The notes beneath the pieces are model-generated. The model was not told the origin of the DNA. It did not search any database and saw only the letters and a program-made list of their open reading frames with translations. The position numbers were made by a program, and so were the translations under genes. From Rickettsiaceae bacterium (GTDB lineage: Bacteria > Pseudomonadota > Alphaproteobacteria > Rickettsiales > UBA1997), in assembly GCA_021323225.1 (NCBI GenBank), contig JAJTCH010000002.1, forward strand, positions 76,425-140,424: DNA of 64,000 nucleotides, in the 5' to 3' direction. Shown in pieces: positions 33,619 through 40,236 of this stretch (position 1 is its first letter; each line of letters begins with the position of its first letter).

Positions 33619-35580
33619 TCAGCCCTGTTCCCTTTCTTGCTTACTCTCAATTTTACCACCATTTGGTTTTTCTGGAGAAGAAGACGGATCTTGTACAGCT
33701 CCCTTCATTTTTTTCATCTTCAATTCTTCTTTTATAATCCATTCTATTAATTTTCCTGATTCTTCTTGAGCCACAATAAATTCAGGCAACTCTTTAATAG
33801 CATCAGACATAGATTTATGCGCCTCTACTAGCAACTTAAAGTTAGAATTGTCATCAAGTTCTGTTCCTTTAACCCTCATTATATATGATTCTGCCATTTC
33901 AACTAAATTTGTTATCATATGTGCGTCCTCAACTTCTTGTTCTGCTTGAATTGCATTTGCCTCCTGCAATGCTATTAACTCAGTTAAACTTGTTATCAAA
34001 GGCATTTTCTGCATTTCTTGCTCTCCATCCTTTTGTTCAGCACCGACCTGACTAGCTTGATTTTCTCTGTCTTCCTCCTTCTGCTTTTGTCTAAACTCAT
34101 ATATCTTTTTCCATCTGTTTCCAACTGTTGCCAATTTTTCAGTCTCTTTAAAATATCTTAATTCTTCATCTGACCCTAATTGTCCCATGACATTTAATAA
34201 ATTCATGAGATAACTTCTATCTAATCTCAACAATAAATTTTTTGTACTTATAATGAACGAGGTATCAGGCTCAGATATTCTTGGCGGCAACTCTCTATAT
34301 TCAAACTTTTCTTCTCCAGGTGACAATGATCTATGTCTTCCACCTATTTCTACTCCCATCCTATCCATATTTTTCAGTTTTCCCATCATCTGATTCACTT
34401 CCTCTAGGGACATATTATCCACCCCCTCTAAAGCTTCAGATATTTTTCTATACATCCCTAACAACAACTTAAAATTCAGGTTTTCCTGCAACTCTGTTTT
34501 TTGAATCTTCGCTATAAAGAATTCCACACCCTCAATTAATCGCGTTAATCTAACTACTTGGTCTTCCCTATCTATTTGGCCTTCATTTTTCAAATAGTTA
34601 TCATGATATGAATTACTGGTTGAAATCAACATTTGGGTTTCTTGAAAATCTTTCAATTCTATATCATCTCCAAAACTACTTACAGCAGCCACTAAAGCAG
34701 TTATTAAAAAATGGTCTATAAAAATTAAGAACGATTTGCTATGCGAAGATAAAGGTTTTATTTGCGCATCAGGTTTCTGCTGATTCTGTTCTTGCTCTTT
34801 TTCATCTTTATCTTCTTTTAACAAAGCTAGAGTTGTATCGACTTTAGTTTTGATTATACCCATCAGATCCTCAATAGCCTTTGCTACGGTTGTTCCACCT
34901 TCTTCTCCTTTGATAATTTGATTATAGGAGGCAATTTTTACTGCAAATAAAAAATCCCCCAAAATTGATCCATCTGACTCAAACCCACCCTCTATTCCTC
35001 CATCCTCATCACTTACCTCATCCAGATTTTTATTTCGAAGTTCTTTTACTGCTCGTATGATTGCCGTTTCTATAAAGTTGATTGCCTGTCTCACATTCTC
35101 TCCTTTTCCATCAGTCTGAGCAGCTAGAGCTCTATTTAATACAAACTCAATCTGCTCTTGCGGAGATAGTTCTGAAGGGAAATTATCAGAACCACCCCTT
35201 CTTTCTTCATTCTCATCTAGTTCTTTAACTTCATTCACCCTTTTTTCCACTTGGGCTAATTTGCCGGATGATTTTCGGCGCGACAGTGGAAGGATATTTG
35301 AAAACCTTCTTTTGGGCTTTGACAAAGAATCTTTCGCAGCTATTTCACTGCTTGAAATAACCGAGGAATCTGACCGCGATAGAGATGATTCTGCCTTTGA
35401 TATTGATGATGATTCCGCTTTTGATGTTGATGATGATCCCCATGTGGCAGCTCGCGATCTAGGAAGAAGCATTTCTTGGCTAACATTTTCCCAACCCGCT
35501 CTTTCATCTCCCATTTCACTTCCTTGCGGTTTAAATCTTGATAAGAAACCTTTTTTTTGACCGCCTTCGTTTCCTCTCAT
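33619..35580 (-). CDS. Family A paralog A1 (long form, 653 aa): Ser-rich disordered N-terminus + repeated alpha-helical modules; unknown function, candidate effector
   Basis: Long ORF. Its N-terminus MRGNEGGQKKGFLSRFKPQGSEMG...LSRSDSSV...KRRFSNILP aligns with 35931..36953, 37037..38962 and 39160..40236. An internal module is duplicated (...GDDIELKDFQETQ... / ...GSDEELRYFKETE...). No known domain recognised. Confidence 0.85.
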   Translation of the reverse strand: MRGNEGGQKKGFLSRFKPQGSEMGDERAGWENVSQEMLLPRSRAATWGSSSTSKAESSSISKAESSLSRSDSSVISSSEIAAKDSLSKPKRRFSNILPLSRRKSSGKLAQVEKRVNEVKELDENEERRGGSDNFPSELSPQEQIEFVLNRALAAQTDGKGENVRQAINFIETAIIRAVKELRNKNLDEVSDEDGGIEGGFESDGSILGDFLFAVKIASYNQIIKGEEGGTTVAKAIEDLMGIIKTKVDTTLALLKEDKDEKEQEQNQQKPDAQIKPLSSHSKSFLIFIDHFLITALVAAVSSFGDDIELKDFQETQMLISTSNSYHDNYLKNEGQIDREDQVVRLTRLIEGVEFFIAKIQKTELQENLNFKLLLGMYRKISEALEGVDNMSLEEVNQMMGKLKNMDRMGVEIGGRHRSLSPGEEKFEYRELPPRISEPDTSFIISTKNLLLRLDRSYLMNLLNVMGQLGSDEELRYFKETEKLATVGNRWKKIYEFRQKQKEEDRENQASQVGAEQKDGEQEMQKMPLITSLTELIALQEANAIQAEQEVEDAHMITNLVEMAESYIMRVKGTELDDNSNFKLLVEAHKSMSDAIKELPEFIVAQEESGKLIEWIIKEELKMKKMKGAVQDPSSSPEKPNGGKIESKQEREQG

Positions 35581-35778
35581 AAATTTATATTTTTAGTTGT
35601 TAGAATTGGGAGTTTTTATTTTTTGTCTTAGACCAAATTTTTCTGGGCTCTGTATTCTGTATGCAGACTAAATATGCATCATCAATTGAGCAAAAATGGT
35701 TTTTATAACTTTTCTTTATATTTAAAGAACTTTACTATACAATATAATAAATTAGAACATCTTATTATGTGAAGTAAT

Positions 35779-35850
35779 TTATCTTCTCTCGATTTCTAGT
35801 TTTTTGGCAATCATAGCTATACCTGGAGCTTTAGGTAGGAGATAAAATCT
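35779..35850 (-). pseudogene. 3'-terminal remnant of a decayed Family A paralog
   Basis: Minus-strand reading gives ...LLPKAPGIAMIAKKLEIERR*, aligning with the A4 C-terminus ...IPQTPSAVLVAEKLEIERQ*. Nucleotide similarity continues into the spacer downstream. There is no start codon and the frame is closed by a stop upstream (35911-35913). Confidence 0.65.
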
Positions 35851-38962: not shown

Positions 38963-39159
38963 AAATTTATATTGTAGTTATGAATTTGGAATTTTTAGAT
39001 TATTTTTCTTCAATTAAGTTTTTCTATGGTCTGCGCTTGCATGCAGGATAGATATAGCTCTCTTTATTAACTAAAATTAGTTTCTATAATTTACCTTATA
39101 TTTATAATTCTTATATTATGAAATACAATAAATTAAAAAAACTTATTATATAGAGTGGC

Positions 39160-40236
39160 TTATTGTCTCTCGATTTCTAGTTTTTCAGCAACTAAAACTG
39201 CACTTGGGGTTTGAGGAATGGAAATCGGCTTTTCACGTGCTATTGATTTTCTTGTCTGTTCCATAATTTCTTTTAGCTCTTCTCCTATTTTCTCATGCAT
39301 GGATTGAAAGCTGTTTAAATTGAATGGCAGCCTAGCTGGTTGTCGCCACTCATCTTTCTCTTCAGCTGAGTTTTCAGATCTTGGTGCTCCTAACCTATTT
39401 TGAGATAAAAACCGGTCCATATTTGATGATCTTTGTTCTGCTGGTTTCTTCTTTTGAAGAATAGATCTTCTTAGAAGATTGCTGGCTTCAGTTTGAATTG
39501 CATCCACCAGTCCTTGAACAGCTTCTTTTACAGTCCTGCTGCAATCTTTATCCCCTTTTTCAATTTGATCTGTAGCGTTAGCTTTTATGATATGCAGCAA
39601 TGTTTCAAGCGGTGATGATGGATCAGGCTTAACTTTTTTACCTATTGCTTTACGCTTGCCAGCTATATCTTTATTTTGAAGCTCTGCTATTTTCTGGCTA
39701 GCTTCCTTTAGCACAATACTAACCGCATCTTTTATAGTTTCAGAATCATTAGCAAGTGCCTGAGCCACTAAAATCGCATGCAGTACAGATGAGATATCAG
39801 AACTTTCTTTTGGGAACATGCTCTGCGGTAAAATTCCATCTGACGCTCTACGCTCCTTATTTCTCTCCTCTGCTCTATTATCAAGAGGTGGCATGGACGA
39901 TCTACGCCCCATTAATACTTTGAATTTACTGAATTTATTTTGTGACCGGTCTTCGCTTGCTCTTCTTATTGTTTCTTCCATCTCTTTGATATGCTTCATT
40001 TCCTCCTTAGATATTCCATCTACCAACATATCTTGACCAGAAACAGAATCTGAGTGCGATCTTAATCTATTTGGTCCTGAATTTGACACTAATCCCTCCA
40101 CCACAGATGATGCTCTGGATCTTGGTTGTAAAGGCTCAAGTAAATGCGATCCAACCTCTTCCCAATTTGTTTGCTTTGCTCCCATTTGATTTGATTTTGA
40201 TCTGTCAAATAAGAACTTCTTTTTACCGCCTCTCAT
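39160..40236 (-). CDS. Family A paralog A4 (short form, 358 aa); unknown function
   Basis: N-terminus MRGGKKKFLFDRSKSNQMG...RLRSHSDSV...GRRSSMPP...ERRASDG. Its helical module (SSVLHAILVAQALANDSETIKDAVSIVLKEASQKIAELQNKD...) is homologous to the first module of A1/A3. Confidence 0.85.
   Translation of the reverse strand: MRGGKKKFLFDRSKSNQMGAKQTNWEEVGSHLLEPLQPRSRASSVVEGLVSNSGPNRLRSHSDSVSGQDMLVDGISKEEMKHIKEMEETIRRASEDRSQNKFSKFKVLMGRRSSMPPLDNRAEERNKERRASDGILPQSMFPKESSDISSVLHAILVAQALANDSETIKDAVSIVLKEASQKIAELQNKDIAGKRKAIGKKVKPDPSSPLETLLHIIKANATDQIEKGDKDCSRTVKEAVQGLVDAIQTEASNLLRRSILQKKKPAEQRSSNMDRFLSQNRLGAPRSENSAEEKDEWRQPARLPFNLNSFQSMHEKIGEELKEIMEQTRKSIAREKPISIPQTPSAVLVAEKLEIERQ

Follow-up and report, generated by a model that had tools for sequence, protein, structure and literature searches.

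The question raised by the locus studied here is whether four adjoining genes without a recognisable domain form a real protein family and, if so, what such a family would do. The genes, A1 to A4, lie between positions 33619 and 40236 of a window of 64,000 nucleotides (nt), the whole stretch of contig JAJTCH010000002.1 that was analysed, from a metagenome-assembled genome (MAG) labelled 'Rickettsiaceae bacterium'. An original prediction, made from the bare DNA, had described them as tandem paralogs in long and short forms that reuse helical modules. All four minus-strand open reading frames (ORFs) are intact, at exactly the coordinates claimed there: A1 (33619..35580, 653 aa), A2 (35931..36953, 340 aa), A3 (37037..38962, 641 aa) and A4 (39160..40236, 358 aa). 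BLASTP aligned A1 and A3 over ~330-345 residues with 138-151 bits and 37-38% identity, and gave 35-55 bits for the remaining pairs. NCBI labels all four proteins hypothetical (A1, MCE3255280.1, being a 'hypothetical protein'), and an independent Logan assembly (SRR35179664) has the same gene order as the window and is 100% identical to it over 14.5 kb, with no polymorphism. No further copy of the family was found elsewhere in the window. A1-A4 thus form a genuine protein family of intact, modular and fast-evolving members, so far restricted to one species. It is new as a family and, as a phenomenon, a familiar lineage-specific paralog expansion in symbionts.

The proteins differ in what follows a shared N-terminal region (N), the architecture being N-Y-X-X in A1, N-X in A2, N-Y-X-linker-Y' in A3 and N-Y plus a unique C-terminus in A4. 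Modules Y and X were tested by Smith-Waterman alignment of the protein segments against 200 shuffles. Module Y is found in A1 (34795..35175, aa 136-262), A3 (38177-38557) and A4 (39409-39798), all on the minus strand as are the genes themselves, and aligned with z-scores of 43 for A1-A3, 12.5 for A3-A4 and 8.6 for A1-A4. Module X occurs twice in A1, as a first copy at 34357..34773 (aa 270-408) and a second at 33721..34314 (aa 423-620) that carries an insert of ~50 aa, and once each in A2 (36054-36515, aa 147-300) and A3 (37763-38173). All six pairs of X gave z-scores of 7.5 to 21, with 12.3 for the internal duplication in A1. The similarities claimed for the family are thus significant, with z from 7.5 to 43 over the two modules, and together with the ORFs and the BLASTP bits they bear out the prediction of tandem paralogs with reused modules. 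The Y alignment has 23 invariant columns and the X alignment 17, the latter including a T-E-L..N motif and a D.(E/D)L(K/R) core; the second X copy of A1 and the X module of A2 also have a Y[KR]ELPP lead-in in common. Neither alignment contains an invariant His or Cys, which argues, weakly, for binding rather than catalysis.

A second, more diverged copy of Y had been placed at the C-terminus of A3 (37061..37465, minus strand, aa 500-634). Pairwise alignment gave no significant support for this, and hhalign with the Y profile only a weak match (P=0.0012, probability 19%, 103 collinear columns), while in the AlphaFold2 (AF2) model A3 residues 502-634 form four confident helices, with a predicted local distance difference test score (pLDDT) of 79-89. 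The domain is therefore probably, rather than demonstrably, a second Y copy. A comparison of Y with X found no relationship between the two, and the C-terminus of A4 was rejected as a full X module, its match being limited to the last X helix (P=0.019). The earlier suggestion of module shuffling holds as far as loss and duplication of modules are concerned. It does not hold for reordering, since the order N-Y-X is fixed, and the variation among the paralogs is mostly module loss or duplication. Recent gene conversion between the paralogs was also rejected, the best DNA repeat being 79% identical over 78 nt.

The proteins had also been described as all-helical, and this proved incorrect for the first ~135-146 residues, which are predicted to be disordered. 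In the full-length AF2 model of A3, residues 1-132 have a pLDDT of ~30 and no secondary structure. Ser makes up 12-24% and Arg ~10% of these heads, which are positively charged overall; the head of A1 (35176..35580, minus strand, aa 1-135) aligned with those of A2, A3 and A4 with z-scores of 8.4, 5.2 and 7.2. The similarity is concentrated in conserved islands, MR.G, an invariant Met-Gly (EMG), P.SR, S.SDS.V and [KR][KR]FS, which in A1 appear as MR.G, EMG, SRSDSSV and RRFS. Tandem Repeats Finder (TRF) reported low-scoring repeats of two to three copies within the A genes (score <= 87; the best, in the A1 head, is a 24-nt unit in 2.2 copies) and no array of short tandem peptide repeats of the TRP type.

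Where translation of the head begins had to be considered, since gene calls disagree on A1. The Joint Genome Institute (JGI) call cuts the protein to 543 aa and places an antisense ORF of 99 aa (35261-35560, plus strand) inside the 5' region, and the NCBI and Logan calls give 653 aa. The long start is favoured because in each of the four genes the frame stays open as far as an aligned ATG, because A1 and A3 have ATATAAATTT in common directly before this ATG, and because at the SR and KP positions upstream of an internal Met the residues are kept despite synonymous codon differences. These features support the view that the head codons upstream of the internal Met are translated. The internal Met belongs to an invariant ATG-GGA (Met-Gly, within residues 18-25 of each protein; minus strand, 35509-35517, 36882-36890, 38888-38896 and 40180-40188), which in A1-A3 is preceded by a Shine-Dalgarno-like AGGA, AGGGG or AGGGA. 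It might serve as an alternative start, which would leave a Gly at the N-terminus, or be just a conserved motif. With a start at this Met, A4 alone would have a Thr at position 6 and so agree with the N-myristoylation consensus (MGxxxS/T), and the upstream codons look translated.

The claim that no known domain can be recognised stood up to every search made. The best Pfam matches of A1-A4 had E >= 0.006 and were all under gathering scores, NCBIfam, PHROGs and PADLOC gave nothing significant, and no PDB sequence matched. An AF2 model of the A1 core (residues 131-410), built from an alignment of five module sequences, reached a mean pLDDT of 72.5. It shows Y as four helices, the second and third of which are joined by a disordered acidic loop, and X as some five helices that include a variable insertion site. 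Foldseek against PDB and the viral BFVD returned nothing with E below 0.16. At the level of single domains, the best Foldseek matches were up-down four-helix bundles of the cytochrome b562/BRIL type (TM-score ~0.5 normalised to the target), and Y and the A3 C-terminal domain are likewise predicted as four helices. However, with E from 0.6 to 4, ~12% identity and no heme ligands in the A modules, this likeness appears to be one of topology only.

Relatives were sought in several ways. A word-seeded protein search with A1 returned A1 itself only, and since it missed even A3 the tool was evidently swamped by low-complexity content. An exhaustive hidden Markov model search with a Y+X profile against 1.84 billion (1.84e9) representatives recovered A1, A2 and A4 only. 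Here A3 was absent because its 90% cluster (P0126/P0127) is represented by an unrelated Logan fragment of 57 aa. This artefact of clustering may conceal further proteins as well and is a caveat on all our statements of 'no homolog'. Two metagenome pattern scans yielded no family member, and tblastn found no match in plasmids and phages or in 562 kb of relatives' DNA.

This orphan status has to be read against the rate at which the family changes. Synonymous (dS) and nonsynonymous (dN) divergence was estimated by the Nei-Gojobori method with a simple correction on the aligned parts, local alignments biasing dN downward. Between A1 and A3, module Y gave dS 0.65 and dN 0.36 (dN/dS ~0.55) and module X dS 0.93 and dN 0.64 (dN/dS ~0.69), while the older A pairs have reached, or almost reached, synonymous saturation. 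For lipA and gyrA, compared between the window genome and its nearest relatives, dS was 1.25-2.2 or saturated and dN 0.056-0.095 (dN/dS ~0.03-0.05). Judged by dN/dS, the A family thus evolves about 10 times faster than housekeeping genes, and the A1/A3 duplication, with a dS below that of the housekeeping genes, would postdate the divergence from the nearest relatives sampled. Some constraint nevertheless remains, as indicated by proportions of nonsynonymous differences (pN) that are lower than those of synonymous differences (pS) for A1-A3, with z of ~2.4 for Y and ~1.7 for X. At such a rate an ortholog in the nearest relatives would lie beyond sequence detection, so that orphan status is to be expected and would be no proof of absence. 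The calibration may be of general use, in that 'orphan' here appears to reflect speed of change and not necessarily absence from relatives.

The surroundings of the genes vary between relatives. The gene order in the window is lipA, A1-A4, B1-B3, orf85, an autotransporter, a C26 GATase, rluX, ADSL and GlnA, with lipA (32633..33607, plus strand) and the Peptidase_C26/GATase gene (49622..50395, plus strand) as conserved left and right borders. In one relative (L091, LipA 90% identical; locus 4548-6359) the C26 ortholog (69% identity) directly follows lipA, and in another (L085, LipA 88%; locus 10001-11712) lipA is directly followed by the rluX ortholog (80% identity) and then ADSL. This direct adjacency means that a block of ~16 kb (33607-49622) is absent at that locus in both. 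A third relative (L083, LipA 92%) has a different Pro/Ser/Thr-rich, C-terminally anchored protein there (10995-12089), all contigs ending soon after, and further relatives have other neighbours at this position.

Besides the A genes, the block holds the B family (B1-B3, 40406..46493, minus strand) and, at its far end, the autotransporter with a PF03797 beta-domain (47309..49555, plus strand). The B proteins (B1 445 aa; B2 561 aa; B3 865 aa, or 922 by the JGI call) have a signal-peptide-like N-terminus, a shared N domain (47% identical between B1 and B2), Pro/Thr/Ser-rich linkers, a C-terminal transmembrane (TM) segment and a tail, and no Pfam match. Between B1 and B2, dS was 1.0 and dN 0.47 (dN/dS ~0.46). 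Used as a search anchor toward closer relatives, the autotransporter found no match of E <= 1e-20 except itself. GC content at third codon positions (GC3) in the block is ordinary for the genome. The A genes follow the order GC1 > GC2 > GC3 typical of coding sequence, and their synonymous-codon fit is just slightly poorer than that of housekeeping genes. Recent horizontal acquisition thus finds no support in composition, and no integrase, transposase, toxin domain or tRNA was found at the block borders. The A genes have expanded in place, alongside the surface-anchored B proteins and the autotransporter, within this variable block, for which a role in 'host contact' is proposed. Just past the autotransporter, at 49600-49635 (plus strand), a strong hairpin is followed by a T-run (AAAGCGTGGTTTTTTG), probably an intrinsic terminator that marks the right edge of the block.

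The lineage itself may point toward a host. The window is part of a JGI metagenome contig of 420 kb. Its GyrA is 91-92% identical to those of two lake MAGs and 78-83% identical to those of several dozen MAGs of freshwater Rickettsiales, some of them named UBA1997 and UBA2645, identity levels from which we infer that the genome belongs to a Gamibacteraceae/UBA1997-related clade of ectosymbionts. UBA2645 has been assigned to Candidatus Gamibacteraceae, a sister group of the ectosymbiont Deianiraea that is inferred to be ectosymbiotic as well (bioRxiv 10.1101/2021.08.31.458344), and imaging has shown cells of the GTDB family UBA1997 on cryptophyte algae, to which they were attached (bioRxiv 10.1101/2023.01.31.526412). 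Among the other genes of the window are those for a Cys-rich TrbC/VirB2-type pilin of 167 aa (29550-30053, plus strand; PF04956, E 3.5e-9) between dnaN and rpmB, and an ankyrin-repeat protein of 680 aa (7530-9572, minus strand) with C-terminal repeats and an N-terminal part of ~450 aa without a Pfam match.

We tentatively favour, at somewhat less than an even chance, the reading that A1-A4 are lineage-restricted, rapidly evolving host-interaction ('effector-like') proteins of an ectosymbiotic freshwater member of the Rickettsiales. The proteins would be exported without a Sec signal, most plausibly via the Rickettsiales vir-homolog (rvh) type IV secretion system (T4SS), and would act through binding by their helical modules, not through catalysis. 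The disordered head would supply docking or phosphorylation motifs, and the one to three Y/X modules that follow it were duplicated or lost between paralogs. The effector-like character claimed earlier is supported circumstantially by the lineage, by the pilin, ankyrin and autotransporter genes of the window, by the variable block and by the raised dN/dS. A 19-residue hydropathy scan revealed no signal peptide or TM segment in the A N-termini, and the hydropathy peaks of the family (1.0-2.0, within helical modules or at their margins, versus 2.3-2.5 for the TM anchors of the B proteins) are consistent with proteins that lack any Sec/Tat or membrane signal.

Several of our own results weigh against this reading. 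VirB/D4-type signals are usually located at the C-terminus, as a positively charged or Glu-rich tail, and the last 30 residues of the A proteins are unconserved among the paralogs, with a net charge of -1 to +2. No other T4SS genes are visible near the pilin gene or within the window, and export or translocation of the A proteins is a candidate property only. RRxS motifs are marginally enriched (P of 0.02-0.24 against shuffles), a dN/dS of 0.55-0.7 is equally expected under relaxed constraint, and the AF2 models are based on alignments of 4-5 sequences.

The family can be compared with several kinds of known effectors. Like some rvh effectors of the Rickettsiales in which no domain is conserved, for example Ats-1 of Anaplasma and Etf-1 of Ehrlichia, the A proteins are lineage-specific, lack a Sec signal and are partly disordered, and they come from host-associated Rickettsiales of the kind in which a VirB-type system is retained; the window has a VirB2/TrbC gene. 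In contrast to Ats-1 and Etf-1, to which they have no sequence or fold similarity, they have no conserved C-terminal signal, their conserved part is the N-terminus, and their translocation is a candidate feature. With the type I secretion system effectors TRP32, TRP47 and TRP120 of Ehrlichia the family shares Ser-rich disordered regions that host kinases could modify, and the character of fast-evolving lineage-specific paralogs. Ehrlichia TRPs, however, are acidic and built from short tandem repeats, whereas the A proteins combine a basic Ser/Arg head with folded helical modules. The mosaic Dot/Icm effectors of Legionella and Coxiella, many with orphan helical domains, are likewise paralogs that gain, lose and duplicate modules, but they belong to another secretion system and phylum, have no domains in common with the A family and lack its fixed N-Y-X order.

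The absence of a signal peptide and of a conserved C-terminal signal would also suit proteins that stay inside the cell. The A proteins might be non-secreted cytoplasmic scaffolds or adaptors that, for example, bind the tails of the B proteins or organise the attachment pole, a reading that we consider somewhat unlikely. The A genes directly adjoin B1-B3 on the same strand, the TM segment of every B protein leads into a cytoplasmic tail, and dN/dS is raised alike in both families (~0.46 for B1-B2). Adjacency is, however, the sole link between A and B, the copy numbers are unequal (four A, three B), and internal scaffolds are seldom fast-evolving and species-restricted. The same rate of change could also mean that constraint on the A genes is relaxed and that these lineage-specific ORFs do little or nothing, being either of recent origin or duplicates in decay within a reduced genome. 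Besides a dN/dS of 0.55-0.69, this would account for the failure of all protein and metagenome searches to find homologs and for the slightly lower codon fit. We regard it as improbable, given that four ORFs of 340-653 aa have stayed intact in a genome of 37% GC despite synonymous saturation of the older pairs. Moreover, pN is lower than pS in both modules (z ~2.4 for Y, ~1.7 for X), the head motifs are kept through synonymous changes, the positional GC order is that of coding sequence and the modules are confidently predicted to be folded.

Tandem arrays of paralogous small helical proteins are typical of immunity genes, and this likeness, with the variability of the block between relatives, would fit mobile-element or phage cargo, or an array of immunity genes that belongs to a defence system or a polymorphic toxin. 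This is the least likely explanation and a very improbable one. PHROG and PADLOC gave no matches, tblastn found none in plasmids or phages, and the block borders lack integrase, transposase, toxin-domain and tRNA genes. GC3 (0.28-0.31) also falls inside the range of the window's housekeeping genes (0.26-0.41) in spite of the slightly poorer codon fit, and proteins of 340-653 aa with long disordered heads are unlike immunity proteins.

If the favoured reading of host-directed proteins is correct, the A proteins would be candidates for the molecular toolkit of a Rickettsiales lineage that is extracellular and stands close to the switch to intracellular life, and from which, to our knowledge, no effectors are known. 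Otherwise they would be nothing out of the ordinary, since symbiont MAGs commonly hold uncharacterised paralogs specific to their lineage. Host interaction could also be envisaged in a more specific form, in which the disordered head is a shared leader of a type not described before. Acting as a translocation signal or as a docking platform for host kinases or adaptors, it would deliver interchangeable, new helical binding modules into or onto the algal host. We hold this version to be decidedly doubtful; if true, the family would be the first handle on the manipulation of protists by epibionts of the Gamibacteraceae/UBA1997 type.

Elsewhere in the window, the minus strand carries an ORF of 532 aa without a Pfam match at 1345-2943, and the plus strand one of 199 aa at 665-1264, also without a Pfam match, which starts like a signal peptide and ends in F-G-E after a C-terminal part that resembles a beta-barrel. 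A phytochelatin-synthase-like gene (PF05023) lies between parB and lpxC at 56510-57373 on the minus strand.

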